Notes: generated from the sequence alone by a model not told the origin. A DNA stretch of 64,000 bases from a virus (IMGVR_UViG_3300009509_000009:15666-79665), one strand, 5' to 3'; positions 1,011 to 46,422 are shown, counted from the stretch's first letter. Numbers and translations are program-made.

Positions 1011-1025
1011 CAGTGTTCTTATGAC
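1011..1025 (-). promoter_or_regulatory. Shared minus-strand upstream motif, copy 1 (GTCATAAGAACACTG)
   Basis: Matches 4 other intergenic copies; 33 nt upstream of the start at 978. Confidence 0.6.
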
Positions 1026-1041
1026 GAGGTGGCTGGGTGCT

Positions 1042-1069
1042 TTGCCAAGCGGTTTCGGGGTGGTAGACT
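1042..1069 (+). promoter_or_regulatory. Possible sigma70-like promoter (TTGCCA-16-TAGACT, extended -10 TG)
   Basis: Consensus resemblance upstream of the 1125 gene. Confidence 0.3.
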
Positions 1070-1124
1070 GGAGCGAGCTATTGTAAAAATCGTCGACGAC
1101 TGAGTCGATGCCTATGGAGGAACG

Positions 1125-2345
1125 ATGATCAAGGTAGCCGGGGCTGTAGTGGACCCCTATGATGACGACTTCGCTTCCTTGAAGGACATGGCTGGAGGGC
1201 GGGGGCTCCCAGAGTTCATCAAGCAGGCAGGGATCATGGAGCCTACGGCACTCAAGAACCTGCCTGATCATGCCTTCGCCGTCGTCATTCTTGGAGACGG
1301 TGAGCCCATGAGGAAGTTCGCGTGTGTGGATAAGGCACACACCGCAGTCAACGTGATGTACTTCACAGAGTACGGCGCTGATCTCCCCGCCCCCGTCAAG
1401 GAGAAGGTAGCCACCAATCTCTGCAAAGCCTGCGAACATTTTGGGCTTGAGGCCCCTCCTCACATCAGGAAGGAGGCGGCTGGAGCCAAGAGACTCCTCA
1501 AGCATGACGGCGCAGAGATGATCGTGCCGGCGCGTGAGGGAGAGAAGACTTCAGAGCTCACCGGCACGATGACCATGCCGAACACGAAGCCGGTGCGCGT
1601 CAAGAAGGCGTCAGTACTCGACGAGCCATACGTGCATGTCTCGAGCTTCATTCCCAAGACAGCTTCGACGACTCCCATGGACCCGGGTGTGTACGCTCTG
1701 GACAACGGGCAGCTCCCGCTGCTTGGATTCGACCAGGTCCTCGAGGCTGTGGACTACTTCGACAAGTATGCCATGAAGATGCACCCGAGAAAGCGCCATG
1801 ATTTCGCAGTGAAGGTGGCCGCTCGGGCGGAGCAGCTCGGCATTCCCGTGTCTGAAGATCTCGAGAAGTATGGGTCGCGCAAGTACGCGCAGGCCGGCTC
1901 GATCAAGGTGGCTGTCGAGACGCGAAAGCGCATGTGGCATAGCCTTGGAGACGGGGAGCGGCACGGAATCGGTGGAGAGATGCTCGACCGTCTCTTCGAG
2001 AAAAGAGCGAGCGTCAATCCCGAGGTGTTTGCCGAATCCCTAGCTGAGCTTGACGCGCAGCTCGGCCTGTCCCACTACTGGGATAGCGGCATTCCCGATC
2101 CCTGGTACAGCACGTTCGGGATCGAGAAGAAGGCAGCGTGGTCCTGGAATCAGGGCGGCGAGTACGTCACCGAGGATGAGCTCACGCGGCTGGCACGGGA
2201 AGAGACTGATCTCTTGGAGGATAGATTCGGGAACGACGTGGCTAAGGGGTTGGCAAACAACCCCACGACCGTGTTCGACTCGCTTCCTCTGGATAAGAAG
2301 CGTATCATCGCTCGGATGGCCCAACAGAGGGGCTCTGGTTTGTGA
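1125..2345 (+). CDS. Hypothetical virion-module protein rich in KxA motifs
   Basis: 406 aa, GGAGG RBS; KVAG, KQAG, KEAA, KKAS, KTAS, KRAS, KKAA. Confidence 0.8.
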   Translation: MIKVAGAVVDPYDDDFASLKDMAGGRGLPEFIKQAGIMEPTALKNLPDHAFAVVILGDGEPMRKFACVDKAHTAVNVMYFTEYGADLPAPVKEKVATNLCKACEHFGLEAPPHIRKEAAGAKRLLKHDGAEMIVPAREGEKTSELTGTMTMPNTKPVRVKKASVLDEPYVHVSSFIPKTASTTPMDPGVYALDNGQLPLLGFDQVLEAVDYFDKYAMKMHPRKRHDFAVKVAARAEQLGIPVSEDLEKYGSRKYAQAGSIKVAVETRKRMWHSLGDGERHGIGGEMLDRLFEKRASVNPEVFAESLAELDAQLGLSHYWDSGIPDPWYSTFGIEKKAAWSWNQGGEYVTEDELTRLAREETDLLEDRFGNDVAKGLANNPTTVFDSLPLDKKRIIARMAQQRGSGL

Positions 2346-2383
2346 TCACCCCGGTCAGGGAGATCGGGTAGGAGGAAAGCAAA

Positions 2384-3106
2384 ATGGCAAGTAAGGCAAT
2401 GGCGCAACAGCGTGCAGCGAAGCCCCACCTGACCTCGGGGAAGGGTGGCGTGGCTGGTGAGGTGGACGATCTTCGAGGGGATGTCGACAGCGCCCTCGAG
2501 ACCTTCGAGTCCCGCTCGGGCTATCCAGAGCTCGACTACATCGACGGGGCAGGTCCGGCAGCAGCCGGCGGTGATATGGTCATGGTCGGCAGGCTTCTCC
2601 TGCAAGGTCAGGCCTTCGCCAGCCTGACGCTCGGCGCATCGCTCGACATCATCGCCAGGGTCCCCGGCAGGGCCGGCAACGACTACAGCGTGGAGGTCAT
2701 CGACTCCGGCGGCGTGGGTGGACTGGCAGTGTCGTGGGCAGCAGACAAGCTCACGATCGACCTCGATGGTGCAACCCCCAACGAGGATGCCATCGCCACG
2801 GCCATCAACGACGCCGGCGTTGGGTCCCCGCTGCGAGCGAACTCAGGTGGTGGAGCGGCCTTCGGTACGGTCGCCGAGACCTCGCTGGCCGGCGGAGCTG
2901 GCGACGGCTGGAGCTGTACGGTTGGTGGCTTCGACGCCCCGATCAAGTTCGACACGGGTGCTGCGACGTCCAACGCCAACCTCACCGAGACTCAGGTCAC
3001 CGTTACTGTCCCGGCTTTGGCCCCGATCGTCGCCACCGACAAGGCGCACGTCTCGGTCACGACGGATGGGATCCGGTCCGACCTCGGTGCGGTGGCAGTC
3101 GAGTAG
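2384..3106 (+). CDS. Putative virion structural protein (G/A/T-rich, beta-rich)
   Basis: 240 aa, AGGAGG RBS; composition resembles sheath accessory or decoration domains. Confidence 0.65.
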   Translation: MASKAMAQQRAAKPHLTSGKGGVAGEVDDLRGDVDSALETFESRSGYPELDYIDGAGPAAAGGDMVMVGRLLLQGQAFASLTLGASLDIIARVPGRAGNDYSVEVIDSGGVGGLAVSWAADKLTIDLDGATPNEDAIATAINDAGVGSPLRANSGGGAAFGTVAETSLAGGAGDGWSCTVGGFDAPIKFDTGAATSNANLTETQVTVTVPALAPIVATDKAHVSVTTDGIRSDLGAVAVE

Positions 3107-3111
3107 TAGAG

Positions 3112-4125
3112 GTGGCTGAACGTCAGCATGAGGATGATCTGTATCAGTTGCTTCGAGGCGTGAACAAGAATGAAGTCGCGCCTCGGGGCACTGATGCGGT
3201 TCAGCCTGCCGTCGCCTCTTATGACACCCTCATCGAGCCTCCCATAAAGGATGCTACGCCCGAGGAGGATGAGCCGACCAACGAGCCGACGGATAAAGTG
3301 CCAGAAGAGGACGGTCAGCCGCAGTCCCCAGAGGGTGGAGCCGATTACAAGCCGTTCACCCTTCGATCAGTATTCGCTCATCACGACTCTCACCCACTCC
3401 TGATGGACATGCTTCTCCTAGAGAAGTATGGACTCGACTGGTTGACGTGGGAGCCGGAGACGCTCTGGGATGCGATCTCGGAGGACTTCAAGACCACGGT
3501 AAGCACCAACAATGCCAGCATGATCCAAGCGGCGAAGACGTGCCACCTGGTCGAGACGCCTTGGGTAGCGTGGGAGATCTTCGTACCAGTCTGCCAGGCG
3601 TTCAACAACAACATTCCAAACTTCAGGACGTTCTTCAAACCTACGATTCCGCAGACGATGTTTGCGGTCGAGGTGATGAACTCTATCGACGACCGCAAGT
3701 TCAGCGAGGAGCTGGAGCGGTTCGTTGCTGCAGTCTTCCTGGACGCCAGCGTCTTCTACCTGCCGCCTCCAGTCGACTTCGCCCAGAAGATGGCGATGCA
3801 GATCGAGTATCGCTGTTCCAGATGTGGTAGAGTTGATCTGGATGACGACAACCTCATGTGCGATTCCTGCGGCGCTCCTCAATCGGCGCTCAAGACGATT
3901 CCGAAGTGGGACCCCGAGCCTACGAAGAAGCGTTATGAGCACATACTGTCGCAAGGAGAGGAGCATGATGTGCTGCAGGAGAAGGGGGTTGACGTCCAGG
4001 TTGCCAAGCTGCTGGTCGCCAGGAACTACCTGGATTACAGGAAGAAGCAGCTGGCGGATCAACTAAAGGCGGTCGAGGATGAGCGACTACAACTACGATC
4101 TGGCTCTCGTAGACGGCCAGCTTGA
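3112..4125 (+). CDS. Hypothetical protein with Zn ribbon
   Basis: Probable GTG start at 3112 inside ORF 2734..4125; CSRCG...CDSCG. Confidence 0.75.
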   Translation: MAERQHEDDLYQLLRGVNKNEVAPRGTDAVQPAVASYDTLIEPPIKDATPEEDEPTNEPTDKVPEEDGQPQSPEGGADYKPFTLRSVFAHHDSHPLLMDMLLLEKYGLDWLTWEPETLWDAISEDFKTTVSTNNASMIQAAKTCHLVETPWVAWEIFVPVCQAFNNNIPNFRTFFKPTIPQTMFAVEVMNSIDDRKFSEELERFVAAVFLDASVFYLPPPVDFAQKMAMQIEYRCSRCGRVDLDDDNLMCDSCGAPQSALKTIPKWDPEPTKKRYEHILSQGEEHDVLQEKGVDVQVAKLLVARNYLDYRKKQLADQLKAVEDERLQLRSGSRRRPA

Positions 4126-5050: not shown

Positions 5051-5055
5051 GTCTG

Positions 5056-6939: not shown

Positions 6940-6941
6940 GA

Positions 6942-6981
6942 CTAAAAGAAATCGCCGGACCCGTTGGAACGAGCCCGGCGA
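6942..6981 (-). terminator. Intrinsic terminator-like hairpin
   Basis: TCGCCGG...CCGGCGA stem followed on the minus strand by TTTCTTTTAG. Confidence 0.7.
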
Positions 6982-7008
6982 CGTGGGGTTTCCTTGGCTA
7001 CTCTTTAC

Positions 7009-7104
7009 CTACCGTTGTCGACTGGCCGTCTCTTTGACGACGAGGTAGTGGGTCACCCGGGCAAGGTAGGTGCCCACTGCAGCCAGGATGAAAAGCTCAA
7101 CCAT
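7009..7104 (-). CDS. Small 31-aa putative membrane peptide
   Basis: MVELFILAAVGTYLARVTHYLVVKETASRQR; GAGGAGG RBS; not in the ORF track. Confidence 0.5.
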   Translation of the reverse strand: MVELFILAAVGTYLARVTHYLVVKETASRQR

Positions 7105-7234
7105 CGTCGTCCTCCTCTTCATCGTCGTCTTGGCGATCGTCCTGTTGTTCTTGAGCTGGTTGGCTCTGAGAACTCATGGCTAGAAGATCGTTCTCGAGGG
7201 CTGCGAAGAAATCCGGCTTGTTCCACTCTCCCAT
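7097..7234 (-). CDS. Small 45-aa acidic protein
   Basis: MGEWNKPDFFAALENDLLAM...DDDEEEDDDG; AAGGGG RBS; downstream of the shared motif. Confidence 0.55.
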   Translation of the reverse strand: MGEWNKPDFFAALENDLLAMSSQSQPAQEQQDDRQDDDEEEDDDG

Positions 7235-7286
7235 ATCCAATCCCCTTCTTTTCCCTGCGAGAGTTGGAATCTAAGCTGGTGCTCTT

Positions 7287-7301
7287 CAAAGCTCTTATAA
7301 C
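7287..7301 (-). promoter_or_regulatory. Shared minus-strand upstream motif, copy 2 (GTTATAAGAGCTTTG)
   Basis: 53 nt upstream of ATG 7234. Confidence 0.6.
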
Positions 7302-7308
7302 CACTAGA

Positions 7309-7338
7309 TTGACCACCCTGCGGCGAGGCTGCTAAGGT
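7309..7338 (+). promoter_or_regulatory. Possible sigma70-like promoter for the RNAP gene (TTGACC-18-TAAGGT, extended -10 TG)
   Basis: Consensus resemblance 27 nt upstream of ATG 7366. Confidence 0.35.
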
Positions 7339-7365
7339 GAGTAGGCTGGAAACATAGGAGAAAAT

Positions 7366-10300
7366 ATGGCCCGGCTAGACCCTAGAGAGGGGTTCGAGCT
7401 CCTCAAAGACAGGGTGACTACCGAGGTGAAGGCTGCGTTCCCCCAGGAGGGGAACGATCACATTCTCGACATCGAGAATGTGGAGATCCAGGACGAGCTG
7501 GACCCCGAGGATATTGAGGGTCAGAAGAAAGCGAAGCTCGGTGGATCAACCTGGGGAGTCCCCGTGAAAGCAGAGTTCGTCTTGAAGGACAAGGCGAGCG
7601 GCAAGGTCATCAACCGAAGTAAGATCAAGGTGGCGACGATCCCGAAGCATACTCGTCGTCATTCCTTCATAGTCGGTGGATCTGAGTACCAGGTGGACAA
7701 CCAGTGGCGGTTGAAGCCCGGTATCTACACACGTGTCGCGCAGAACGGTCAGCTCGAGTCACGGTTCAACTTCCAGGGCAAGATGAACCTCGATATGATC
7801 TTCGACCCCAAGAGCAGGAAGTTTCAGCTCAAGCACGGTGGGTCGAAGCCGCCGCTCTATCCAATACTCAAGGCGGTTGGCGTTGACGACGACGCGCTAC
7901 AGCAGGCGTGGGGCAAAGAGATCCTCAACGCCAACAAGACAACGCCGAATGGAAAGGCGCTGAACGTAGAGAAGCTAGCGATCGGTTTCGCCAAGAGACT
8001 CGATCCAAACAAAGACGTCAAGAACTTCGACGACGCTGGAGATGTCATTCGTGAATACATGGGTACGGCGGAGCTCAGACCCGACGTGACCAAGCTCACG
8101 CTAGGCAAGGAGTTCAATACCATCACGCCTGAAGCACTCACGAGGACGTCGGGTAGACTTCTTGGTGTAGCTAGAGGCGACAAGCCAGACGTGCGGGATG
8201 CTCTGCAGTTCAAAGATCTTCTCAGCACGGAGGACTTCATCGCTGAGCGTCTTCAGCAAAGCGCCAAGATCATCAAGCGCAGGATACAGAACAACATAGA
8301 TCGAAGGACCACCGTTCGTGAGATCGTGGGGCCAGACATTTTCGATCGACCCGTCAAAGAGTTCTTCTCGAAGACGTCGCTGGCGAATACACCTCAGCAG
8401 GTCAATCCACTCGAGATGTTGTCCGGCCAGCAGCGTACCACTATCACTGGAGAGGGTGGAGTCAAGAGCGCACACAAGATCCAAGAGGACGCAAAGCTAG
8501 TAGATCCGTCACACTTCGGTGTGCTCGACCCACTACACACTCCGGAGTCCGACAAGACAGGAGTGACACTACACCTTGCCATGAGCGCCGTGAAGAAGGG
8601 CAACAAGGCCTTCGTCCCACTGCACAATGTCAAGACTGGAAAGGTAGAGTATCTCGATCCAGAGACGGTCAATGAGAAGATCGTGGCAATGCCGGATGAG
8701 GGTAGGTGGGACAAGGGTAAGTGGGTGCCCAACGCGAAGAAGGTCAAGGCGAGTACGCTGGGCAATGAGATTCGAGACGTCGACTCCTCCAAGGTCCAGT
8801 ACGTCATGAAGAATCCTGGTCAGATGTTCTCTCTCGCCACCAACATGGTTCCGTTCCTCTCCTGCGACTCCCCGAATAGATCATCCATGGCTGGGAAGCA
8901 GATGGAGCAGGCGATCTCGCTGAAGTATAGAGAGCCGCCTCTAGTTCAGGTAGCGCGAGGAGACGGGACCAAGAAGACCTTCGACGAGTTCGTCGGGCGA
9001 TATGCCTCTCATGAATCCCCAGTTGATGGGAAGGTGACCAACATCACTGACACGTTCATGGAGGTCAAGTCGGGGCGCAAGACACACAAGGTCCAGCTGT
9101 ACAAGGACTATCCCCTCAATGACAAGAAGGGTCTTCTCCAGAGTACCCCTACGGTGAAGGTAGGGGACAAGGTGATGAAAGGGCAGACTGTAGCCGATAC
9201 CAACTTCACAAAGGGCGGAGTCTACGCGCCTGGAGTGAACCTCAACATCGGGTACACGCCGTGGAAGGGCTACAACTTCGAGGACGGTGTGGTGATCTCT
9301 GAGTCTGCTGCGAAGAAGCTGACTTCAGAGCACATGCACAAGAAGACCCTGTCCACAAAGGAGGCGAAAGCTCCCGGCAAGGAAGTCTTCATGTCCCACT
9401 TTGCCAGCAGTCTGGACAAGGAGCAGGCAGAGAAGCTGGACAGAGACGGCATCATCAAGCCGGGCATGAGGATCAGAAAGGGCGACACTCTCATCGCTGC
9501 AGTGGCCGACGCCCCGCCCACTACTGAGAATCAGATGTTCAAGAATCTCCACCGATCATTGGTGCAGCCATTCGACAACCGATCTATCACCTGGGAAGAA
9601 GACCAGGAGGGTGAAGTCGTCAATGTCACCAAGAAGGGGAAGAAGATCCAGGTTCACGTCAAGACTGAAGAGCCGATGACTGTTGGCGACAAGATGGTTG
9701 GGCGCCACGGCAATAAGGGAATCGTCACCAAGATCTTGCCAGACAACGAGATGCCGTCGACCAAAGATGGCAAGCCCCTCGAGGTGCTGATGAATCCAAT
9801 CGGTATTGCTGGTCGGATGAACATCGGTCAGGTGCTTGAGACAGCAGCCTCTAAGGTAGCTGAGAAGCGCGGACGCCCGCTCAAGATCACAAACTTTGGA
9901 GTCAGTGATAGCCGCACGGAGATCGAGAATCTGCTGAAGCGGCATGGAGTATCAGATCGAGAGACCATTGTAGATCCAAAAGACGGGACGGAGATAGAGG
10001 GCATCCAGGTTGGAAAGCAGTACATCCTCAAGCTCCAACACCAAGTAGATAAGAAGATGTCTGCTCGAGACAGAGCTGGCTACGATCGTAACTTGATCCC
10101 AAAGGGCGGCGGGAAGCACGGTGCTCAGGCGCTAGGAGCTCTCGGCATGTACGCCATGTTAGCTCACGGGGCTAAGCACAACATCCGTGAGATGCAGACC
10201 TACAAGTCTGATAAGGCGCAGAACGACGATCTTTGGAGCGCCATTCAGACTGGTGAGCCACTGCCTCCTCCGAAGACTACCTTCGGGTATCAGAAGTTCG

Positions 10301-13300
10301 AGTCCTACCTCAAGGGAATGGGCGTCGACACGCAGAAGGATGGGAACTCCCTGAATCTCATACCACTGACTGACAAGCAGGTGGAGGAGATGTCTTCTGG
10401 GGAACTCAAGGATGCGGGGCGGGCTGTTCGAGGGTACAAGATTGGATCGAAGCGCAGAGGCTCAATAGATCCTGAGAAGTCTGGTCTATTCGATCCGCAG
10501 ATCACCGGGGGCTTGGATGGCACCAGGTGGTCTCACATCAACCTAGCAGAGCCAGTGCCAAATCCACTCTTCGAGAAAGCAGTCCGTAGTCTCACCGGGA
10601 TTCGTGGACCTCAGTTCAATCGTCTGATCGAAGGCAAGGACGGCGTCGATAAAGACGGAAAGATAGTTCCTCCGGGTACTCAGGGAGCTCTCTACGGTCC
10701 TCAGTCCATTGGTCTCATGCTGGATAAGGTAGACATCAACAAGGACCTGCAGGCCGCGCAAGCGAAGCTCCCAACCATCAAGAATCGTCAGCCACTGAAT
10801 GAGACACGCCGAAAGATCAAGTACCTGCAGGCCCTGCAGAAGGTTGGCCTGTCCCCTCGTGAAGCGTACATGACCTCGAAGGTTCCAGTTCTTCCTCCAG
10901 CGATGAGGCCTCTATCAATGCTCGAGGACGGAGCTCTGCAGTTCGATGATCTCAACCAGCTCTACAAGGACGTGGCCCTACTTGATCAGCAGATCAAGGA
11001 GATGCCCAGCTTCGCGCCAGACAGCGCGAAGGCAGAGGCTAGGGCTGACGTATACGATCGGATGAAGGCCCTAACTGGTCTTGGTGGCTCCCTCAAGGGA
11101 AGGTACAAGGGGATAGCCGACATCATAGCCGGAGACAATCCGAAAAGTGGTTACGCCCAGGACAAGCTGATCAAGAGGAAGATGGACCTGTCCATGAGGT
11201 CCACTATCGTGCCCGAGCCTTCATTGTCCTTGGACGAAGTAGCCATTCCTCGCAAGGCAGCTATGGAGATCTACAAGCCCTTCATCGTCAGGGAGCTCCG
11301 TATGTCCACGGGTTCCGGACCTCTCACTGCCAAGGAGATGGTGGAGGCCAATCACCCGGCTGCTCGGGAGGCCCTGAACCGAGTGGTTGAGGAGCGACCC
11401 CTCCTCATGAAGCGCGACCCAGTACTCCACAAGTACGGCATTCAGGCCTTCAAGCCTAAGATCGTAGAGGGCAAGGCCATCAAGATACACCCCCTTGTGT
11501 GCTCCGGATTCAACGCAGACTTCGACGGGGACACCATGAGCGCCACAGTACCCATCACCGAGGAGGCTGTGGATGAAGCCCGAAAGATGTTTCCGTCGAA
11601 GATGCTGTTCAATCCAGCCACCAAGGGAGTCATGTACACGCCGGCCCATGAAGCTCAGGTTGGTCTCTACATGATGACGGACGTAAAGAAGAAAACGAAC
11701 TACCAGTTCAAAGATCAAGCCGCCCTCGAGCGCGCAGTGAAAGAGAAGAAGCTGGGTCCTAATGATGCTGCCAAAGTAGGCGGGAACTTCACAACACTAG
11801 ATCGGTTGAGGCTCAACGCCACCCTGCCAACACAACTGCAGGGAGGAAAGCTGCTCACTGATCTAGACTACCGCTTTACCAAGAAGGACCAGGGTCAGTT
11901 CTTCAAGCAGATGGCAGAGACGGACGAGAAGGGTTTCCCGATCAACATAGATAAGATGAAGGACGTGGGAAACCTGAAGGTCACTCATGGAGGGTTCAGC
12001 TTCGGGCTCAGTGACTTCAAAGTACACAAGGACATTCGAGATCCGATCATGCGTGAGGCGGATAGGAGAGCGTCAGCTCTGGATTTGTCCAAGAAGAACG
12101 ACATGAACAAGTTCGTCGACATCTATGAAGGTGCGATGACCAAGATGAAGGATCGGCTGGATGTCAGAGTCAAGGAGCTCAGCACAAAGAACTCTTTGGC
12201 AATGCTCGAGACGGCAGCTGGGATCAAGGGTAAAGGGTACGCCCAGCTCACCACAGCTCCAGGTCTGTTCGTTGACGCAAAGGGAGAGGTAGTCGCCAGT
12301 CCAGTGAGGAAGTCGTACTCTGAGGGTCTCTCCGCTTCTGACTACTGGGCGTCAGTGAGCGGTGGACGCAAAGGAATCATCCAGCGAACGCAGTCTACAG
12401 CCAAGCCAGGCTATCTCACCAAGCTCATGATGAACTCGGTGATGGACACCTTGGTGCAGGAGGACGACTGCGGTACCGATCGTGGGGTCAGTCTCAACAT
12501 AGATGAACCAGACCTTATCGGTAGGTACACTACGGCCCCAATAAAGATCGGAAGCACGACGTTCAAGCCAGGAACTCTGGTCACTGCTGACATCGTCAAC
12601 AAGGCCAAGAATGCTAAGGTCACCAGGATCGTTAGCCGATCTCCGATGCGTTGCAATCACGCACACGGCGTATGCGCGAAGTGCATGGGGCTCAACGAGA
12701 GAGGAGAGCACCACGGGCTCGGAACCAACATCGGCGTGCTGGCTGCCCAGGCTATCGGAGAGCGCGGAACCCAGCTCGCTATGAAGGCGTTCCACTCAGG
12801 CGGGGTGTACGAGGGTAAAGCCGCGCAGGAGAGGTCGATCACTGGTGGTGGGTTCGAGCGCGCCGTCACTCTGCTCTCCATGCCGAAGCAAGTGAAGGGA
12901 TCTGCCAAGCTGGCTATCGCTTCTGGTAAGGTAGAGGCGGTGAAGAAAGATCCAGCGGGTGGGTTCGATGTGAAGATAGGCGGCGTCAAGCACTACATTC
13001 CTGCTGATCGTACACCGCTACCCGATCTGAAGAAGGGTAAGGCTTTCCGAAAAGGTGATCCTCTGACTAAGGGTCCTATCAATCCGAGGGAGCTGCTTCC
13101 TCTTACCAACATGAACAAGGTCCAGGGATACCTGGCTTCGGAGCTACACAGTCTCTATGCCCCAGAAGGAATCAGACGTAGAAACTCCGAGGTCCTCGTC
13201 AGGTCACTATCCAACGTCACCAAGGTCGAGGACTCTGGAGATAGCTCGTCGTGGATCAGGGGAGACTTTGCTCCGACTGCTGTAGTCAACGAGTGGAATC

Positions 13301-13548
13301 GTAAGAACGCCAAGCGCGGGCTGAAACCTGTACAGCACACGCCAGTTCTTCGTGGGGTCAAGACTATCCCCGAAGATGTGCAGACAGATTGGCTAGCCCG
13401 ATTGAATCATGAGAACATCAGGTCTACCCTAGTAGAAGCGGCACAACAGGGTTGGGCGAGTAATCTTCACGGTGATCACCCAATCCCGCCGATGATCGTG
13501 GGTAAGGAGTTCGGCAAGGGAACAAAGGATAAGCCCTGGTCGTACTAA
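7366..13548 (+). CDS. rpoBC: DNA-directed RNA polymerase, fused beta-beta' single chain (2060 aa)
   Basis: Beta motifs: HTPESDKTG, GYNFEDGVVIS, GDKMVGRHGNKG, RMNIGQVLE, YILKLQHQVDKK. Beta' motifs: PVLPPAMRP, LHKYGIQAF, FNADFDGD, DDCGT, AQAIGERGTQLAMKAFHSGG. Confidence 0.97.
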   Translation: MARLDPREGFELLKDRVTTEVKAAFPQEGNDHILDIENVEIQDELDPEDIEGQKKAKLGGSTWGVPVKAEFVLKDKASGKVINRSKIKVATIPKHTRRHSFIVGGSEYQVDNQWRLKPGIYTRVAQNGQLESRFNFQGKMNLDMIFDPKSRKFQLKHGGSKPPLYPILKAVGVDDDALQQAWGKEILNANKTTPNGKALNVEKLAIGFAKRLDPNKDVKNFDDAGDVIREYMGTAELRPDVTKLTLGKEFNTITPEALTRTSGRLLGVARGDKPDVRDALQFKDLLSTEDFIAERLQQSAKIIKRRIQNNIDRRTTVREIVGPDIFDRPVKEFFSKTSLANTPQQVNPLEMLSGQQRTTITGEGGVKSAHKIQEDAKLVDPSHFGVLDPLHTPESDKTGVTLHLAMSAVKKGNKAFVPLHNVKTGKVEYLDPETVNEKIVAMPDEGRWDKGKWVPNAKKVKASTLGNEIRDVDSSKVQYVMKNPGQMFSLATNMVPFLSCDSPNRSSMAGKQMEQAISLKYREPPLVQVARGDGTKKTFDEFVGRYASHESPVDGKVTNITDTFMEVKSGRKTHKVQLYKDYPLNDKKGLLQSTPTVKVGDKVMKGQTVADTNFTKGGVYAPGVNLNIGYTPWKGYNFEDGVVISESAAKKLTSEHMHKKTLSTKEAKAPGKEVFMSHFASSLDKEQAEKLDRDGIIKPGMRIRKGDTLIAAVADAPPTTENQMFKNLHRSLVQPFDNRSITWEEDQEGEVVNVTKKGKKIQVHVKTEEPMTVGDKMVGRHGNKGIVTKILPDNEMPSTKDGKPLEVLMNPIGIAGRMNIGQVLETAASKVAEKRGRPLKITNFGVSDSRTEIENLLKRHGVSDRETIVDPKDGTEIEGIQVGKQYILKLQHQVDKKMSARDRAGYDRNLIPKGGGKHGAQALGALGMYAMLAHGAKHNIREMQTYKSDKAQNDDLWSAIQTGEPLPPPKTTFGYQKFESYLKGMGVDTQKDGNSLNLIPLTDKQVEEMSSGELKDAGRAVRGYKIGSKRRGSIDPEKSGLFDPQITGGLDGTRWSHINLAEPVPNPLFEKAVRSLTGIRGPQFNRLIEGKDGVDKDGKIVPPGTQGALYGPQSIGLMLDKVDINKDLQAAQAKLPTIKNRQPLNETRRKIKYLQALQKVGLSPREAYMTSKVPVLPPAMRPLSMLEDGALQFDDLNQLYKDVALLDQQIKEMPSFAPDSAKAEARADVYDRMKALTGLGGSLKGRYKGIADIIAGDNPKSGYAQDKLIKRKMDLSMRSTIVPEPSLSLDEVAIPRKAAMEIYKPFIVRELRMSTGSGPLTAKEMVEANHPAAREALNRVVEERPLLMKRDPVLHKYGIQAFKPKIVEGKAIKIHPLVCSGFNADFDGDTMSATVPITEEAVDEARKMFPSKMLFNPATKGVMYTPAHEAQVGLYMMTDVKKKTNYQFKDQAALERAVKEKKLGPNDAAKVGGNFTTLDRLRLNATLPTQLQGGKLLTDLDYRFTKKDQGQFFKQMAETDEKGFPINIDKMKDVGNLKVTHGGFSFGLSDFKVHKDIRDPIMREADRRASALDLSKKNDMNKFVDIYEGAMTKMKDRLDVRVKELSTKNSLAMLETAAGIKGKGYAQLTTAPGLFVDAKGEVVASPVRKSYSEGLSASDYWASVSGGRKGIIQRTQSTAKPGYLTKLMMNSVMDTLVQEDDCGTDRGVSLNIDEPDLIGRYTTAPIKIGSTTFKPGTLVTADIVNKAKNAKVTRIVSRSPMRCNHAHGVCAKCMGLNERGEHHGLGTNIGVLAAQAIGERGTQLAMKAFHSGGVYEGKAAQERSITGGGFERAVTLLSMPKQVKGSAKLAIASGKVEAVKKDPAGGFDVKIGGVKHYIPADRTPLPDLKKGKAFRKGDPLTKGPINPRELLPLTNMNKVQGYLASELHSLYAPEGIRRRNSEVLVRSLSNVTKVEDSGDSSSWIRGDFAPTAVVNEWNRKNAKRGLKPVQHTPVLRGVKTIPEDVQTDWLARLNHENIRSTLVEAAQQGWASNLHGDHPIPPMIVGKEFGKGTKDKPWSY

Positions 13549-13558
13549 GGAGACTGTC

Positions 13559-13951: not shown

Positions 13952-13961
13952 TGAGTCCTGA

Positions 13962-17424: not shown

Positions 17425-17426
17425 TG

Positions 17427-18779: not shown

Positions 18780-19187
18780 CTATTTATCTGACCCCTGGTC
18801 AGCTGGCTTCTTCCGCTTCCACTTCTTCCGCTTCTTGTACGGAGCGAGTGATAGTAGGAATCCGTCTCGATCCATCATCATGTGTACTACTCGCTGCTGG
18901 CCGGAGCTTCGAGCTTCCGCCACGATGACGTTGTAGATGAGTTTGGCTGACTCTTTGTCTGATCCCAGAGGGAGGGGCATGCTCACCCTGACGAGGTCAA
19001 GTTCCACCGGTCCGAACTCGATTTCGTGTGCAAGGCAGCAATACCCTCGATCGGTATCGGCCACACCGATCTCTCCCTCCATAACGAAGCTGAGCCGTTT
19101 GAGCGCTACCTTGAGCCACTCAGGGCTGGCTGGTTTGCTCTGCTGGTTCAACGGCTTCCTGGTCTGCTTCCTTCTCGATGGAGCCAC
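18780..19187 (-). CDS. Hypothetical protein
   Basis: 135 aa, second gene of a minus-strand cassette; start uncertain. Confidence 0.55.
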   Translation of the reverse strand: MAPSRRKQTRKPLNQQSKPASPEWLKVALKRLSFVMEGEIGVADTDRGYCCLAHEIEFGPVELDLVRVSMPLPLGSDKESAKLIYNVIVAEARSSGQQRVVHMMMDRDGFLLSLAPYKKRKKWKRKKPADQGSDK

Positions 19188-19839
19188 ACTCGTGAAGGAT
19201 CATGCGGTCTCGGGTAGCCTTGTCGAGATGATTGACGATCGGGATATCATCCTCGTTCTTCCTCACCTCTATCCACCCGAGAGAGGGCGCCAGAACGCTC
19301 TTGACCGCGCTGTCTACTGCAGCGCGTAGATCGTTGATGGTAACGCTGACTGCCGTGGCGACACCCTTGATGGGGGTGTGACCCTCGAACTTGCCGTCGT
19401 CGCCCTCGAACCTGATGAAGCGACTGCCGAAGTCACCGGGGTTCTCGGTGAGGTCGAAGTCTGCCTCTTTCTTGTTCGGGCCAATGATCAGGCCGTTGCG
19501 ATTGTCACCGTCCAACCACACAGTGATGTCTACCAGCTCGCCAGCCTTCTTGCGAGCTGACTTCAGGATGGTAAGTTTTGGCAGCACACCGGTGAACTCC
19601 TGCGCCGCGCCCAACCTCGCCTGCAGCATGGTGCTCTCCATGCTGTTCAGACGCCTCTTACGTCCGACCACTCCTCCCTTCGCGCGCTTCTCCGGCGGTA
19701 CCCCCGCCATCAAGCTGTCTCCAAGCACATCCCGTGGGAGGTACTTGTCCATTTCCCTCAGCTCATCCTTGGTGTATCCCATGGATGTTGCGAGGGGCTC
19801 CAATTGAGCCAATGTGTACTTGACCTTCTTCTTGCCCAT
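19120..19839 (-). CDS. Hypothetical protein
   Basis: 239 aa, AGGAGG RBS. Confidence 0.75.
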   Translation of the reverse strand: MGKKKVKYTLAQLEPLATSMGYTKDELREMDKYLPRDVLGDSLMAGVPPEKRAKGGVVGRKRRLNSMESTMLQARLGAAQEFTGVLPKLTILKSARKKAGELVDITVWLDGDNRNGLIIGPNKKEADFDLTENPGDFGSRFIRFEGDDGKFEGHTPIKGVATAVSVTINDLRAAVDSAVKSVLAPSLGWIEVRKNEDDIPIVNHLDKATRDRMILHECGSIEKEADQEAVEPAEQTSQP

Positions 19840-19877: not shown

Positions 19878-19892
19878 CAAAGAGCTTATAAC
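19878..19892 (-). promoter_or_regulatory. Shared minus-strand upstream motif, copy 3 (GTTATAAGCTCTTTG)
   Basis: 39 nt upstream of ATG 19839. Confidence 0.6.
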
Positions 19893-21875: not shown

Positions 21876-22451
21876 TCAAGCGGCTTTGCGTCCGCGCTTC
21901 TTTGCGGCCGGCTGCTTGGTCGTGGACTGCTTGGTTTTTCTGGCTGCACGCTTCTTGGGGGTGGGGGTGGGGACGTCGGTGATCTGGGTGCCGAGCGCTT
22001 CGACGTCTTCCTTCACGGACTCGAGCTCTGCGTTCAGCTCCTTCTTGAGCGCCTCCTTCAGGCCGCTTCGGAGAGTGTTGATCTCTCCTTGGAGCTGGGT
22101 CTCCTGCGCCTTCATCACCTTCTCGGCCTCGAGGGCGAAGCTGTTGATGGCGCTCACGGTGTTCTTGTCGAGCTGTCGGGTAACGCCGGCTGCGGCGCCA
22201 AAGCCCATGACGGCGCCCGACGTCGAACCGATCGTGATTCCGAGCCAGTCAGCCAACTCCAAGAGGCGCCCGGTGCTCCAGCCCAACAGCGCGCCGAGTC
22301 CCGCACCGCCGATCGTTCCCAGCAGATACACGAACCAGTATCTGCCCAACGAACTCCCAAAGGTCAGCTCCTTGGCCGTCTTCTCGGCGATCTTGCTGAT
22401 CTCCTTCTCGGTCTTCTCCTCTTTCTTCTCTGTCTTCGTCTCGTCTGACAT
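21876..22451 (-). CDS. Putative membrane protein (two Gly-rich hydrophobic helices, coiled coil, basic tail)
   Basis: 191 aa, AGGAGG RBS. Confidence 0.75.
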   Translation of the reverse strand: MSDETKTEKKEEKTEKEISKIAEKTAKELTFGSSLGRYWFVYLLGTIGGAGLGALLGWSTGRLLELADWLGITIGSTSGAVMGFGAAAGVTRQLDKNTVSAINSFALEAEKVMKAQETQLQGEINTLRSGLKEALKKELNAELESVKEDVEALGTQITDVPTPTPKKRAARKTKQSTTKQPAAKKRGRKAA

Positions 22452-22493: not shown

Positions 22494-22508
22494 CAATGAT
22501 CTTATGAC
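22494..22508 (-). promoter_or_regulatory. Shared minus-strand upstream motif, copy 4 (GTCATAAGATCATTG)
   Basis: 43 nt upstream of ATG 22451. Confidence 0.6.
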
Positions 22509-22531
22509 TGGAGGAAGGTCGGTTTTGCAGG

Positions 22532-23275
22532 TTAGAGGGCTGCCAGACGGCCCCTACTGCCTGTCTTCTTCATCTGGCGGGCCAGGTCATCGAAGGCGTC
22601 GATATCATTCGAGGCGAGGTGCTGAAGGAGCTTCTGGCTTGGCCCGAGCTCTGCGGCTCGCTCTACGAACAGTACTGCGATAGTGGACAGGTTCTTTCTG
22701 GCGACGACCAGGAGGTCACGAATGCGTTGAAGCTCGAGATTTGTTTTTAGGTCTTGGTGGGTAGCCACGAACTTGGTGGCCCTCATGCACAGCTGGTAGA
22801 AAGTCTGCCAAGAGTGATCTACTTTTAGCATATCATTCAGCCGATCGATCTCTAGCTCTGTGATCTTGATAAAGATCTCGCAGAAACTGAGAAGCCTGTC
22901 TGTAGGCCAGGAATCTTCCCCGAGCTCCATCTCTACCACCTGGTAAAGTTGGATGAGCTGGTCGTCCTCCATCTTAGTGAACCTCGATGCCACGAGACCG
23001 TTGACCTCGAAGAGCATGTTCAGGGCCTCTTTGAGGCGTTCGACTTCTCGCTCGAGGAATAGTAGGCGACGTATCATATCGCCAGGAGCAATCTCTCCTG
23101 CTATGTTCAGTCGATGGATCTCTGCGACGTCAGCAGTGCGTACATAGCAGCTGTCGCCCTCGTACTTCCTGCGAATGAGGCCTTGGTCGCATAGGTCATG
23201 GACCTTCTTCTGGGGGCAGTTGAGGATCCCCGCTGCCTTTGAAACTGGAATGAACTCTTTAGGGTTGCTTCCCAT
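22532..23275 (-). CDS. Helix-turn-helix (excisionase/MerR-like) DNA-binding protein
   Basis: N-terminal 'IPVSKAAGILNCPQKKVHDLCDQGLI' followed by coiled coil. Confidence 0.7.
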   Translation of the reverse strand: MGSNPKEFIPVSKAAGILNCPQKKVHDLCDQGLIRRKYEGDSCYVRTADVAEIHRLNIAGEIAPGDMIRRLLFLEREVERLKEALNMLFEVNGLVASRFTKMEDDQLIQLYQVVEMELGEDSWPTDRLLSFCEIFIKITELEIDRLNDMLKVDHSWQTFYQLCMRATKFVATHQDLKTNLELQRIRDLLVVARKNLSTIAVLFVERAAELGPSQKLLQHLASNDIDAFDDLARQMKKTGSRGRLAAL

Positions 23276-29533: not shown

Positions 29534-29543
29534 AAAGGAGAGC

Positions 29544-29912: not shown

Positions 29913-29945
29913 GACTGCCACCATCAACCAAGAGGAGACTGAAAG

Positions 29946-30404: not shown

Positions 30405-30428
30405 TGGAGACAAAGGAAGGAGAGATCA

Positions 30429-31553: not shown

Positions 31554-31589
31554 CCTACATCTGCTACGAGATGCCGATCACGAAGTGAC

Positions 31590-31627
31590 GGGGCGGCGGT
31601 GCTTGGCGGCGCCGTCGCCCCTTTTAG
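31590..31627 (+). terminator. Intrinsic terminator after the capsid gene
   Basis: GGGGCGGCGGTGC...GCGCCGTCGCCCC-TTTTAG. Confidence 0.8.
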
Positions 31628-31640
31628 TTTGGAGGTCGCC

Positions 31641-33012: not shown

Positions 33013-33020
33013 GAGGGCAT

Positions 33021-35971: not shown

Positions 35972-35993
35972 GCCAGGAAGATAGGAGATCAAG

Positions 35994-37304: not shown

Positions 37305-37310
37305 GGATTG

Positions 37311-39501: not shown

Positions 39502-39511
39502 GAGAGGACCA

Positions 39512-42937: not shown

Positions 42938-42946
42938 GAGGGGCCC

Positions 42947-44095
42947 TTGGCGCGCAAGTATTCAGATTGGGCGATCAAGAAGCTAGCTGCTAGGCGTGAG
43001 CGCACTGGTGGCTACTTCACCAATCCCGTAGTGGAAGGCGACCCCGAGGCCATCTACAGCCCCGGCGTCGTCGGCCACGAAGCGGGTCACGCTAAGCTAC
43101 ACACCATTCCTGTGTTGGGGGACATGCTCACGTACGCGCCGATCGTTGCTCCTATGATCGCTGGTGGTATTGCCGCCAGGGGAGCTGGTCCTAACGAAGC
43201 GGCTCAGCAAGCAGCAGCCCAGAAGGCGGTAGAAAAGCTATCCCCATATCTCACTGGAACTCGCCTCGCTGATGAAGCTGGATCATCTCTTATCAGCCTC
43301 AGCAACCTCAAGAAGGATGTTGAGGCCGGGAAGATGTCCAAGGAAGACTATGCCGCTGCTCAACGCGGTCTTCTGTCAGCCTTTGGCACCTATGGCGTTG
43401 GGGCCGCCACGCAACACAAACTTATTGATCCGGGAGCCGCTGGTGCGTTAGGCATGGCTGCTACCGCAGGCACTCTCCTCTCTGAGAGAGGAGGCATGAC
43501 CGCCGAACAGGCTGCGAAAAAGGTACACGAGATCGCTCCTGGAACTGACGTGTACGCGATCAACGCGCCAATCGGTGGCGGATCTATGTATATCCCTAAG
43601 GCAAGAACACCGCTGGGTGGCTTGGCACACAGGGCTCTGTTTGCTGCGGTACTCCCTCAGAAGGAGATCACCAGGCTGAGCGAGCGTGGTGGTATTGTCA
43701 CGGCCCCTGTTCACCTTGGTACTGCTGGTGTAGGCATTGCGCAGAGCATGGCCAACCAGATCAGTCCTCTCGGTCCACTAACTCCGATGCTCACCTATCC
43801 TGGTGAGATCAGAAAAGGCCGCAGAGTCATTGTTCCAGAGCTTGAAGAACAGAAGGGCGACGTTCTTGATCCAGAAAAGGCGTATCGTCTTGCAGAGGGA
43901 GGGGCTGGAGACAAGCTACGGGCGGCGGCGTACTCGTTCCGACATCCGCTGGCTATGGCTGGCCAGGTCCTCAAAGGCGGGCCGAAAGACAAGGGTAGGA
44001 AAGAGGCACCTCCGAAGGAGGAGCTTCCGAAAGAGAAAGCAGCTTCAGCCTCCCCGCACGTTCAGTATCTTCGCATGATGCTGACGGAGGCGTAG
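42947..44095 (+). CDS. Putative zincin metallopeptidase-like protein
   Basis: 'GHEAGHA' plus downstream 'LADEAGSS'; hydrophobic segments; KLAA and EKAASAS. Confidence 0.55.
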   Translation: MARKYSDWAIKKLAARRERTGGYFTNPVVEGDPEAIYSPGVVGHEAGHAKLHTIPVLGDMLTYAPIVAPMIAGGIAARGAGPNEAAQQAAAQKAVEKLSPYLTGTRLADEAGSSLISLSNLKKDVEAGKMSKEDYAAAQRGLLSAFGTYGVGAATQHKLIDPGAAGALGMAATAGTLLSERGGMTAEQAAKKVHEIAPGTDVYAINAPIGGGSMYIPKARTPLGGLAHRALFAAVLPQKEITRLSERGGIVTAPVHLGTAGVGIAQSMANQISPLGPLTPMLTYPGEIRKGRRVIVPELEEQKGDVLDPEKAYRLAEGGAGDKLRAAAYSFRHPLAMAGQVLKGGPKDKGRKEAPPKEELPKEKAASASPHVQYLRMMLTEA

Positions 44096-44126
44096 GCTAC
44101 GTGATACAACAAGTGAGGAGGCTCTG

Positions 44127-44879
44127 ATGGCCGGTTTCGCACAATGGAATCCCCTGAACCACTTCGTTCAGGGTGGGATGCCCGACGGGCGCTTCGTCTC
44201 CGGAGCCTTGACTCTGGTCGCCGCTGGTCCACCTCGTCTGGCCCAGATGGGAGGTAGCGTTCAGAGCGCTGCCAATGCGATCAACGACGAGGCGGCGGAT
44301 ATCGTCTTCCCGATCGGGATCACCCAGAACATCAACATGTCCCAGAACAAGACCTTCATGAGGATCTGGGAGCTGGGATCCGAACGCAGCTACTTCATCG
44401 GTGGCCGCACAGTCGGGCAGTTGGCTCTCTCGAGAGTCTACTACCACGGCCCATCACTTCTGCGAGTGCTCTACGCCTACTACAGGGACGAGCGCGGCAG
44501 GGTCCAGGTCCCGTGGGTCTTCCCGAATCTGGGCGCCACTCAGATGTTCAACGAGCACGATGTGATCGTGCCTCCTGGCTACGAGAACCTGTTCCTGAAC
44601 CTGGCATCAGACCTGTTCAACCAGCCCATCGGGCTCTTGGTCTACGTCAGGGACTCGAACCTCAAGACCATGGGGGCCATCTACCTCGAGGCCTGCTACA
44701 TCCCGAACCACACGTGGGCGACGGATGCACAGGGCACCATCGTGCAAGAGACCGTGGCAGTTCAGTACGAGCGTGTCATGCCGGTCAACGTCTCGGCAGT
44801 CACTCTCGTTACGGGGCTAGCCAAGTCCACGGGTGGCGCTGAGTCGGGCGGCGGCTTCCACCTCACCCTCGGCTTCTAG
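44127..44879 (+). CDS. Tail tube protein
   Basis: 'IGITQNINMSQNK...IWELGSERSYF', 'IYLEACYI', 'ETVAVQYER'. Confidence 0.7.
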   Translation: MAGFAQWNPLNHFVQGGMPDGRFVSGALTLVAAGPPRLAQMGGSVQSAANAINDEAADIVFPIGITQNINMSQNKTFMRIWELGSERSYFIGGRTVGQLALSRVYYHGPSLLRVLYAYYRDERGRVQVPWVFPNLGATQMFNEHDVIVPPGYENLFLNLASDLFNQPIGLLVYVRDSNLKTMGAIYLEACYIPNHTWATDAQGTIVQETVAVQYERVMPVNVSAVTLVTGLAKSTGGAESGGGFHLTLGF

Positions 44880-44894
44880 ACCCGGAGGTGGGTG

Positions 44895-45779
44895 ATGCTG
44901 CAAGACCAGAGGTTGATGGCTGACGTCCTTGTGGAGATGTCCAATGGGCACTTTCGCAAGCTGGCGTCCCTGTCTGCCAGGACGAGGGGAGCCGTCGAGC
45001 TCGGCAAGGTCGCTGCAGCGCGCTTCTCTCCTCCTACAGAGGATGAGTACCTCCAGAAGATGGCGGCTTCTCAGCTGGGAGAAGCGTACCTTGAGAAGTT
45101 GGCTCGAGCTGTCATCAACGAGGAGGTCTCCTGGGACGACCTTTCTGACCTGGAGAAGACTGCCCTCGGCATTGGTGGTATCGGCAGAGCCCTCAAGGGC
45201 GTTGGCCAGTTCTTCACCAAGGGCAAGACTGTCAGGATGGCTGGTGGCCCAGGAAGCGCCTCGGGGGGCATAGGGGCTCGTCTCCGGAGCGCTTGGAACA
45301 GGGGCACAGGCCAGCAGTGGAAGAACCTGGCCGGCAGCAAGGGCGGAGGCCCTGGTATCTCAGGGCCAAGGACGCAGACCTTCAAGGGCGGCACGAGGCC
45401 CGCAGGGGCTGGAGCAGGCCCGTACAGAGGGGCTGCAGCTCAGGGACCAGCCACGGCGGTACGACCTCCTCCCCAGCAGGCCGGCGCTCAGATGCGCCAG
45501 AGGTTCCAGCAGCTCAACCAGGGAGCTCAGCCACTGCAGGGTAACAGAGCGGTCCAGAGGGCCTCTGCAGCGGCCGGAGGAACTCCAGGTGCCAGGAAGC
45601 CTCTTCTCTCCTGGAGGACGAAGGCGGGCCTGGGAGCCGCAGCTGTGGGCGCCGGAGGCCTCTACCTCGGAGGCAAGGCTCTGGACACGGCCAACACCTT
45701 CCTCCATCAGCAACAGCCGGGAGCCTACCAGTACGGTATGGGGGCTCCAACCCCCTTCATGCAGCCCCAAGGCATGTAG
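44895..45779 (+). CDS. Gly/Arg-rich protein with KxA-rich leader and C-terminal hydrophobic helix
   Basis: KLAS, KVAAA, KMAAS, KLAR, EKTAL in the first 92 aa. Confidence 0.75.
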   Translation: MLQDQRLMADVLVEMSNGHFRKLASLSARTRGAVELGKVAAARFSPPTEDEYLQKMAASQLGEAYLEKLARAVINEEVSWDDLSDLEKTALGIGGIGRALKGVGQFFTKGKTVRMAGGPGSASGGIGARLRSAWNRGTGQQWKNLAGSKGGGPGISGPRTQTFKGGTRPAGAGAGPYRGAAAQGPATAVRPPPQQAGAQMRQRFQQLNQGAQPLQGNRAVQRASAAAGGTPGARKPLLSWRTKAGLGAAAVGAGGLYLGGKALDTANTFLHQQQPGAYQYGMGAPTPFMQPQGM

Positions 45780-45791
45780 CTCGGCGATTTA

Positions 45792-45884
45792 GTCATAGTG
45801 AACAGTTGTTCACGTATGACGCCGGCGTTTGACATACTGCGTCAAATACCCCTAACGCATCGAACTGACCCAAACGGGGTATTT
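45792..45884. repeat. Cluster of inverted repeats at a convergent boundary
   Basis: GTCATAGTGAAC/GTTCACGTATGAC; TTTGAC/GTCAAA; AAATACCCC/GGGGTATTT. Confidence 0.7.
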
Positions 45885-45903
45885 CGTTCGTTGACATGAC
45901 CAG

Positions 45904-45927
45904 CTAAGGTTGGAGCCCGAAGGCTCC
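45904..45927 (-). terminator. UUCG-tetraloop hairpin ending a minus-strand cassette
   Basis: GGAGCC-TTCG-GGCTCC-AACCTTAG on the minus strand. Confidence 0.6.
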
Positions 45928-45936
45928 TCGAGGGCC

Positions 45937-46353
45937 TCAGCCCTCCCGGTGGATGCGGTCGACGAACTCCTCGGCGGCGTTGACGTCGTCTCTGAGCCTC
46001 TTCCAGGTGATGGACAGCTCGTCCTTCCACGCCATGTGAGCTCGGACAATGGCTGCGTGGAGCATCCGCTCGATGAACTTCCGCTCGGCCGGCGTAGTCA
46101 TCTGCATGAGGTTGGGCGCCTCGTCGTCCTCGTAGAAGCGGAAGCACGGGCGCTTGTAGTGGGGGAGGGTGGAGCAGAGGAGCCAATCCATAATGGATCT
46201 GTATTGCTCCTCGGGGCTAGGCCTCTTGATCATCCGCAAGGCCTTCTGGTAGTCGCGCTCCTTCTCGAGGAGACGCTCGAGCTCGGGGAAACATTCGTTG
46301 CTGGCCGGCTCTTGTATCTGTAGTGGTTGACACGACTGGCGGAACATCGACAT
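45937..46353 (-). CDS. Hypothetical protein
   Basis: 138 aa, GGAGGAGG RBS. Confidence 0.75.
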   Translation of the reverse strand: MSMFRQSCQPLQIQEPASNECFPELERLLEKERDYQKALRMIKRPSPEEQYRSIMDWLLCSTLPHYKRPCFRFYEDDEAPNLMQMTTPAERKFIERMLHAAIVRAHMAWKDELSITWKRLRDDVNAAEEFVDRIHREG

Positions 46354-46407
46354 TGATACCTCCTCCCTCTACGGGATCAGTAGGAAAAAGAGTCCGTACT
46401 GCGACCT

Positions 46408-46422
46408 CAAAGATCTTATTAC
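46408..46422 (-). promoter_or_regulatory. Shared minus-strand upstream motif, copy 5 (GTAATAAGATCTTTG)
   Basis: 55 nt upstream of ATG 46353. Confidence 0.6.

Follow-up and report, generated by a model that had tools for sequence, protein, structure and literature searches.

A 15-nt motif found repeatedly on the minus strand of a fragmentary phage genome appears to be the downstream half, comprising the -10 region and start site, of a three-part promoter common to a lineage of ~180-kb phages that encode a beta-beta' RNA polymerase (RNAP) of the bacterial type and a sigma factor. The DNA analysed, here called the window, is a stretch of 64,000 nt covering bases 15666-79665 of a single 79,665-bp record (IMGVR_UViG_3300009509_000009). 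The record is classed as linear in IMG/VR and its CheckV completeness of 43% indicates a fragment of a ~180-kb phage; complete relatives measure 178-195 kb and some of them have terminal repeats. In the reading that we favour, with a probability of about 0.7, the full element, nGCAAA-N17-nATAAG-N5-TG, marks a promoter class of the lineage that is read by a phage sigma factor, probably together with the fused beta-beta' RNAP of the phage, and that drives non-structural genes. The data show how the element is conserved, built, placed and oriented and that relatives carry the sigma factor, and published proteomics covers the virion; we infer the promoter role of the element, as well as its sigma factor, core enzyme, start site and timing. 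A preliminary description of this DNA had proposed a promoter for the encoded RNAP or for a phage specificity factor. The promoter-like element tied to the phage transcription machinery stands, as the sites are lineage-wide, intergenic, strand-correct, syntenic and distinct from host sigma70 promoters, whereas the single -10-like box does not.

Exact matches to GTHATAAGNNCWYTG number five in the window, the same five minus-strand copies that had been listed before, and the rest of the record adds none. Dinucleotide-preserving shuffles returned no match (0/100), and the chance expectation is 0. According to a simple gene map and the intergenic sequences, all five sites are intergenic and point leftward. 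They lie 32-54 nt 5' of minus-strand start codons with GGAGG-type ribosome-binding sites, so that the placement reported earlier holds with this measured spacing. Of two weaker cores mentioned at the time, the one near 47830 proved to be the record's top scorer with the family weight matrix, while the one near 48762 fails the family pattern; it is a sigma70-like TTGACT-N17-TAAGAT that is picked up by a sigma70 consensus scan. Two candidate sites at 48498-48512 (minus strand) and 48540-48554 (plus strand) had been overlooked. The sites in the window, with position weight matrix (PWM) scores where available, are:

1011-1045, minus strand: site 1, GCAAA box at 1041-1045, GTCATAAG at 1018-1025, predicted start at G 1011; PWM 24.7.
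7287-7321, minus strand: site 2, partial box GCAGG at 7317-7321, core GTTATAAG, between the portal and RNAP genes; PWM 19.3.
19878-19892, minus strand: site 3, GTTATAAGCTCTTTG, no -35-like box; below the family PWM threshold.
22494-22528, minus strand: site 4, GCAAA box at 22524-22528, core GTCATAAG; PWM 23.8.
46408-46442, minus strand: site 5, GAAAA box at 46438-46442, core GTAATAAG; PWM 19.5.
47823-47857, minus strand: site 6 (one of the former weaker cores), GCAAA box at 47853-47857, GGCATAAGAACTATG at 47823-47837; PWM 28.6, the highest in the record.
48498-48512, minus strand: candidate site 7, GGTATAAGCTCTCTA, A instead of G at the predicted start, with an ATG at 48477, 20 nt downstream.
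48540-48554, plus strand: candidate site 8, GGTATAAGCATCTTG, core score 15.5, no box, back-to-back with site 7.

Conservation of the element was assessed in 93 related loci that were retrieved from IMG/VR by TerL and portal searches and oriented like the window. Identity to these relatives is 48-59% for TerL and 45-69% for the portal protein, synteny is conserved, and the G+C content ranges from 41 to 64% in the 13 TerL loci where it was computed. In the oriented relatives, 102 copies of the pattern G..ATAAG.{5}TG point leftward and 10 rightward. A stricter form of the motif is found 45 times leftward and once rightward, and 33/46 of these copies are intergenic, compared with ~11% of the DNA. 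Sites are kept at three syntenic positions, namely the head of the replication operon, the gap between the portal and RNAP genes and the region upstream of TerL. Equivalents of site 1 lie ~4 kb left of the portal gene (L015 and L018), and equivalents of site 2 are present in L015, L018, L021, L022, L023, L024, L026 and L028. The relatives' site in the portal-RNAP gap precedes a matching pair of acidic and hydrophobic micro-ORFs (very short open reading frames, ORFs) and a terminator. Leftward equivalents of site 3 stand upstream of TerL in L003, L004, L005 and L008. A near-identity DNA search with a 7-kb stretch gave no match among cultured phages.

The preliminary description had suggested a genome-wide scan as a check, expecting intergenic and strand-correct sites, and this is largely what was found. 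The matrix was trained only on other loci and reversed sequences served as a control:

G1 (complete): 13 PWM matches, 13 of them intergenic; 0 in the reversed sequence.
G2 (complete): 9 PWM matches, 9 of them intergenic; 1 in the reversed sequence.
This record: 6 PWM matches, 5 of them intergenic; 0 in the reversed sequence.

Over four genomes, 57/62 matches are intergenic, set against an intergenic fraction of 5-12% in those genomes, and matches are almost always co-oriented with the next gene. De novo k-mer enrichment recovers TATAAG and GGTATA as the top enriched upstream words both in G1 and in the cultured Salmonella phage Arash. The complete genomes carry sites on both strands, in blocks, so the minus-strand character belongs to the region captured in the window and not to the element; the original association with the minus strand is abandoned, as the window itself contains one plus-strand site. 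A second enriched upstream word, (G)AGGTTTAGTGAT, was seen in G2 (L110-L118) in ~13 upstream regions, perhaps as a conserved region for the initiation of translation or as some other signal.

The three-part structure emerges from an information profile of 88 non-identical leftward sites that were chosen by the downstream motif alone. An upstream box, G-C/A-A-A-R, lies exactly 15 nt before the motif and, counted from the first G of the latter, spans -20 to -16, with A at -18 in 81/88 and at -17 in 80/88 sites, and the 15 positions between box and motif carry no information. Selection by box and core, with no demand for the TG, yields 89 sites, 64 of which have T and 73 G at the predicted -1 and +1 positions, respectively; such sites number 79 leftward and 0 rightward in oriented loci. 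The preferred gap between box and motif is sharply defined: it measures 15 nt in 105 sites, with 14 nt (23 sites) and 16 nt (34 sites) tolerated. Box, core and TG each predict the others. Because the flanking positions are unconserved, shared ancestry alone cannot account for the signal. The absence of a shared -35 box, as first described, is thus contradicted in the window itself, where GCAAA precedes site 1, site 4 and the site at 47823, and GAAAA precedes site 5, each time exactly 15 nt upstream.

Expressed in sigma70 numbering, nGCAAA occupies -35 to -30 (the box proper -34 to -30). The spacer measures 17 bp, a G stands at -14 and ATAAG fills -11 to -7; the next five bases are unconstrained and lead up to T at -1 and G at +1. 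Two conserved elements with ~17 bp between the hexamers, +/-1, constitute the bipartite layout of sigma70-family promoters, and the element has sigma70-family promoter geometry with an extended-minus-10-like G. The G at -7 is invariant, in agreement with the earlier remark that the core lacks the final T of a sigma70 -10 hexamer. The predicted leaders of 94 family sites, viewed from +1 to +25, are purine-rich from +2 to +10 and have a median length of 34 nt. TAG/TAA is enriched 3-4-fold in these leaders at +10 to +20, for example as TTAGCC or TTAGAT in sites 1-3 of the window.

Cultured phages carry the same element. In Salmonella phage Arash, the reverse strand carries 30 copies of GGTATAAG and the forward strand one, with 2-3 occurrences in controls, and these sites lie upstream of non-structural genes and tRNA clusters. 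At the same offset as the family -1/+1, T is present in 27/31 Arash sites, followed by G in 23/31 and by A, as in site 7 of the window, in 8/31. Vibrio phage D181 has 36 reverse and 7 forward matches, mostly GTTATAAGTAAnnTR. The consensus is kept across RNAPs that are ~32% identical and across unrelated hosts, which argues for a phage-borne reader. A full-text search of the literature for the word GGTATAAG returned primer sequences only. Variants at -13/-12 (GGT in 27/27 Arash sites, mostly GTT in D181) were suggestive of lineage-specific forms; they are mixed in metagenomic genomes and were not used as evidence. Apart from the element, Arash (OQ632216.1) contains CTAAAATA(C) at 137630, 139406, 142676 and 173498 on the plus strand, upstream of plus-strand structural genes and, at two places, back-to-back with the reverse complement of GGTATAAG. 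With 5 copies only, it is a candidate for a second, late promoter class.

The most likely reader of the element is a divergent sigma70-family factor that the lineage itself encodes. A conserved sigma70-family protein of 250-340 aa is encoded in 5/5 complete relatives first examined and in 16/20 further relatives, including 7/8 of those at least 90% complete; overall, it is present in 12/13 relatives of at least 90% completeness. Its gene was located in two relatives, G001 and G007, at ~50 kb to the left of the portal gene, and by synteny the sigma gene of the present phage would be expected ~30 kb beyond the left end of the contig. Pfam identifies Sigma70_r3 (region 3) in the protein, and its alignment displays a C-terminal helix-turn-helix resembling region 4.2. 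The fold of an AlphaFold (AF2) model, whose predicted local distance difference test (pLDDT) score is 73, corresponds to that of full-length sigma factors over 240-250 columns; a B. subtilis SigD model, sigmaS, SigB, SigA and WhiG rank highest. The lineage protein is a divergent sigma70-family factor with regions 2, 3 and 4. The best NCBIfam match is the FliA/WhiG subfamily, with an E-value of 1.4e-11 and 44.6 bits against a cut-off of 189.6. Among 50,697 phage records, its only homologs are gp10 of Arash and proteins of the Vibrio phages D69, D148 and D181, the same phages that provide the best matches of the RNAP. One relative (G004) encodes, besides the lineage sigma, a second and far more FliA-like sigma of 185 aa (L095:1495-2052, plus strand; TIGR02479, E-value 1.5e-34) that comprises regions 2 and 4 only and has motif copies on its flanks.

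This sigma factor most probably works with the phage's own fused enzyme, which is encoded in the window:

7366-13548, plus strand: fused beta-beta' RNAP of the multisubunit type, 2060 aa, matching Pfam Rpb2_6 (E-value 9e-61) and Rpb1_2 (E-value 2e-27), with further matches in PHROGs.

In bacteria, the clamp helices of beta' dock region 2 of sigma. The beta' part of the window enzyme aligns with residues 178-515 of bacterial beta' (E-value 3e-57), and the clamp-helix segment is included. Mass spectrometry of Arash virions detected beta, with the most spectra of any protein, beta' and the sigma factor gp10 (PMC10585845). The Arash portal gene adjoins the RNAP gene, as it does in the window (PMC10585845). 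Given these three virion proteins, the units headed by the element could be transcribed by a holoenzyme that is injected, and they would then be the first to be transcribed. That a complete, virion-packaged holoenzyme of the bacterial type, made of the fused beta-beta' and its own sigma, reads GCAAA-N17-nATAAG-N5-TG after injection without help from the host is a tentative proposal, whose chances we put slightly short of even.

Several observations weigh against the favoured reading. In the window, a good -35-like box is missing at sites 2 and 3, the latter of which also falls under the family threshold, and the upstream A-rich box of Arash is weaker than that of the family. The FliA/WhiG label of the sigma factor is soft, as the match lies below the family cut-off and matches to RpoS and RpoD are similarly strong. 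Searches with Sigma70_r2 and r4 found no sigma gene in this 43%-complete contig, which we attribute to truncation rather than absence. The pairing of sigma with the phage core rather than the host core is deduced from two lines, co-inheritance and virion proteomics. The latter comprises 116 'virion' proteins in Arash, and its authors note possible carry-over of abundant proteins (PMC10585845).

The main rival explanation retains the same promoters and the phage sigma but lets sigma redirect the host core RNAP, while the phage beta-beta' would use other signals. To our knowledge, every characterised phage sigma70-family factor works with the host core, and the evidence that joins the sigma to the phage enzyme is indirect. 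In a survey of jumbo phages, those that encode sigma factors without an RNAP are thought to recruit the host core (PMC7824862). We nevertheless consider this explanation improbable: in cultured phages, homologs of the sigma occur only where this type of RNAP is carried, the sigma is near-core in the lineage, it is contained in Arash virions alongside beta and beta', and the phage beta' retains the clamp-helix region. Furthermore, k-mer enrichment revealed no other conserved motif that is similarly strong and might be used by the phage enzyme.

Recognition by the host alone, without a phage sigma, fits poorly. An unmodified host holoenzyme might read the sites as weak extended-minus-10 sigma70 promoters, given that G-14, A-11, T-10, A-9 and A-8 agree with TGnTATAAT and that the boxes are spaced by 17 bp, or it might use an alternative sigma such as sigma28, whose promoters have a similar register. 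However, measured against housekeeping promoters (TTGACA-N17-TATAAT), the element has an invariant G at -7 where sigma70 needs T and a GCAAA box in place of TTGACA, and the sigma70 scan passes 0/5 sites; the GCCG of sigma28 promoters is absent as well. The same non-canonical consensus in phages of Salmonella, of Vibrio and of unknown sediment hosts, at 41-64% G+C, points to a phage-borne reader. On the whole, host recognition alone is quite unlikely. A non-promoter role, as an operator for a phage DNA-binding regulator (such as the HTH_17 protein at 22532-23275) or as an RNA-level 5'-leader signal for processing or translation, fits poorly too and is very unlikely: although the element always lies 26-55 nt ahead of start codons, a weak helix-turn-helix protein is encoded beside site 4 and TAG/TAA and purines are mildly enriched downstream, the element lacks dyad symmetry and is strictly directional, its bipartite form, with a spacer optimum of 17 bp and a tolerance of +/-1, is what sigma recognition typically shows, it heads divergent units that need a promoter and leave no room for another, and part of it would be upstream of any transcript holding the rest.

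With promoters read by the phage sigma and the fused RNAP, the units driven in the window would be a 16-kb replication/recombination operon, four small leftward islands and, at 45.9-48.5 kb, a set of leftward genes. A rightward arm of small genes would probably be driven from the plus-strand site at 48540-48554. Site 1 heads the 16-kb leftward operon, which encodes a helicase, DnaB, a primase, a PolA-type polymerase, a UvsX-like recombinase, a Cas4-type exonuclease, RusA and resolvases. Strong evidence from the comparison with relatives supports the earlier idea of one gene class that includes the helicase operon. Sites 2-5 head small leftward islands within an otherwise rightward structural region that contains the genes for the portal, the 2060-aa RNAP, TerL, the major capsid protein and the tail sheath. 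Site 4 is upstream of a 191-aa gene (21876-22451), site 5 of a 136-aa gene (45937-46347) and site 6 of the genes at 47199-47744 and 46987-47223, while site 8 faces the rightward arm of small genes beginning at 48845. The genes downstream of the sites have no informative PHROGs or Pfam match except for a weak HTH_17.

In the window, no block of structural genes has the motif in front. The possibility that the structural genes use host sigma70-type promoters was tried with strict patterns, whose counts are not above chance, and it remains a lead. Individual candidates of this type are TTGCCA-16-TAGACT at 1042-1069 and TTGACC-18-TAAGGT upstream of the RNAP gene, and a form found by eye, TTGnnn-17-(TGn)TAGAGT, is conserved in relatives.

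The unit behind site 2 consists of:

6951-7234, minus strand: transcription unit with a 45-aa acidic micro-ORF (7097-7234) and a 37-aa hydrophobic micro-ORF (7009-7122).
6982-6951, minus strand: terminator of this unit, a 14-bp stem followed by a T tail.

This micro-operon between the portal and RNAP genes is kept downstream of the portal gene in L018, L021, L022, L023, L024, L026 and L028, with a strongly acidic protein of 40-50 aa, a hydrophobic peptide of ~30-40 aa and a strong bidirectional terminator, and every copy would be driven by a leftward promoter-type site. Site 3 sits 26 nt from the opposite-strand ATG of TerL and heads a two-gene leftward island (18780-19839); the gap between TerL and this island is 78 nt, in which another promoter would not fit. 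In relatives, the leftward site upstream of TerL is followed by 120-240 nt without an ORF of at least 70 aa and with a hairpin at the end (L003:9694-9913, L005:8171-8410, L004:9770-9943 and L008:8229-8386, in minus orientation). This stretch contains a conserved sequence in L003 and L005, GGAAGATAGCCATCACACCATTC, and may be a small RNA or micro-peptide unit. The counterpart of the stretch in the window is taken by the two inserted genes at 18780-19839.

Sites 7 and 8 lie back-to-back in a divergent control region of 367 nt (48478-48844) that also contains several TTGACA/TTGACT boxes and an inverted repeat, AAATGAC...GTCATTT. The region has the look of a principal switch between the leftward genes and the rightward arm. 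At the other end of the record, a motif copy without a box, GCTATAAGAAGATTG, is located at genome position 1204 (minus strand); it lies in coding sequence, 151 nt ahead of the final gene called in the replication operon. Genome positions 1-660, the record's left end, enter an open and very acidic minus-strand reading frame, consistent with truncation.

The phage lineage matches the RNAP-encoding clade of Caudovirales described in PMC7481178. That work deals with the phylogeny of the clade only and leaves promoters unmentioned, and the Arash paper mentions no promoters either (PMC10585845). What is new is a predicted consensus of sigma geometry that is common to uncultured sediment phages and cultured Salmonella and Vibrio phages. 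The consensus can be used to annotate transcription units in a group of phages that is widespread and otherwise opaque. It also opens several questions to test in Arash and Salmonella: the use of sigma by a fused, alpha-less RNAP of the bacterial type, the reading of G at -7 by a sigma70-family protein, and an injected holoenzyme as the starter of infection.

Among known promoters, those of sigma28 (FliA/WhiG/SigD) have the consensus TAAAGTTT-N11-GCCGATAA, or TAAA-N15-GCCGATAA. They resemble the phage element in being bipartite, with an A-rich -35 and an ATAA-containing -10. Aligned on ATAA, the AA of the phage box falls on the last two A's of TAAA, and the distance from AA to ATAA is identical (20 nt). 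The phage sigma, moreover, has FliA/WhiG as its best family and the SigD model as its top fold match. Unlike sigma28 promoters, the phage box is GCAAR instead of TAAAG, G-n-n replaces GCCG, an invariant G follows ATAA and the start is a conserved TG; the overlap is confined to the ATAA core and the AA of the box, and the leading T is absent. The likely reader, in addition, is phage-encoded and far below the family cut-off, and its core enzyme may be that of the phage. Extended -10 sigma70 promoters (TGnTATAAT) share G-14, A-11, T-10, A-9 and A-8, the 17-bp spacer and a start predicted 7 nt after the hexamer, but they differ in that the phage element has G instead of T at -7, an unconserved T-15 and GCAAA at -35, and its sites are missed by the sigma70 consensus scan. 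Promoters of N4-type virion RNAPs are hairpin-forming inverted repeats; the sites have no shared inverted repeat, and TTATAA is palindromic in sites 2 and 3 only. The likeness of ATAAG to the TAAG core of baculovirus late promoters was considered and set aside as coincidental, given that neither geometry nor lineage is shared.

Multisubunit RNAPs of jumbo phages use the late promoters T-3ATG+1 in phiKZ and A-11ACA-N6-T-A/G+1 in AR9, and AT-rich early boxes at -10 (PMC7598289). These are likewise phage-specific promoters of phage multisubunit enzymes; their short element spans roughly -11 to -7, the start at +1 is a purine preceded by T, and virion-packaged enzymes are proposed to read the early ones. 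Unlike the present lineage, the phiKZ and AR9 enzymes are highly divergent, have 4-5 split subunits and lack both a sigma70-family factor and a -35 element; the present enzyme is fused and of the bacterial type, a true sigma70-family gene occurs in the lineage and the promoter has a -35-like box. In T4, with gp55 (TATAAATA), and in SPO1, with gp28 and gp33/34, a phage sigma70-family protein also sets a phage-specific promoter class that separates gene classes. However, neither T4 nor SPO1 has an RNAP gene, a -35 element is missing from the late promoters of T4, and the consensus sequences bear no relation to each other. Promoters specific to phages and sigma factors encoded by phages were already known, and according to the jumbo-phage survey a phage with an RNAP lacks a sigma and one with a sigma lacks an RNAP (PMC7824862), whereas the present clade combines both. 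If the proposal of a virion-packaged holoenzyme is true, this would be the first phage transcription system to unite a core of the cellular type with a true sigma, and a minimal sigma-dependent RNAP without alpha and omega whose sigma selects G over T at -7.

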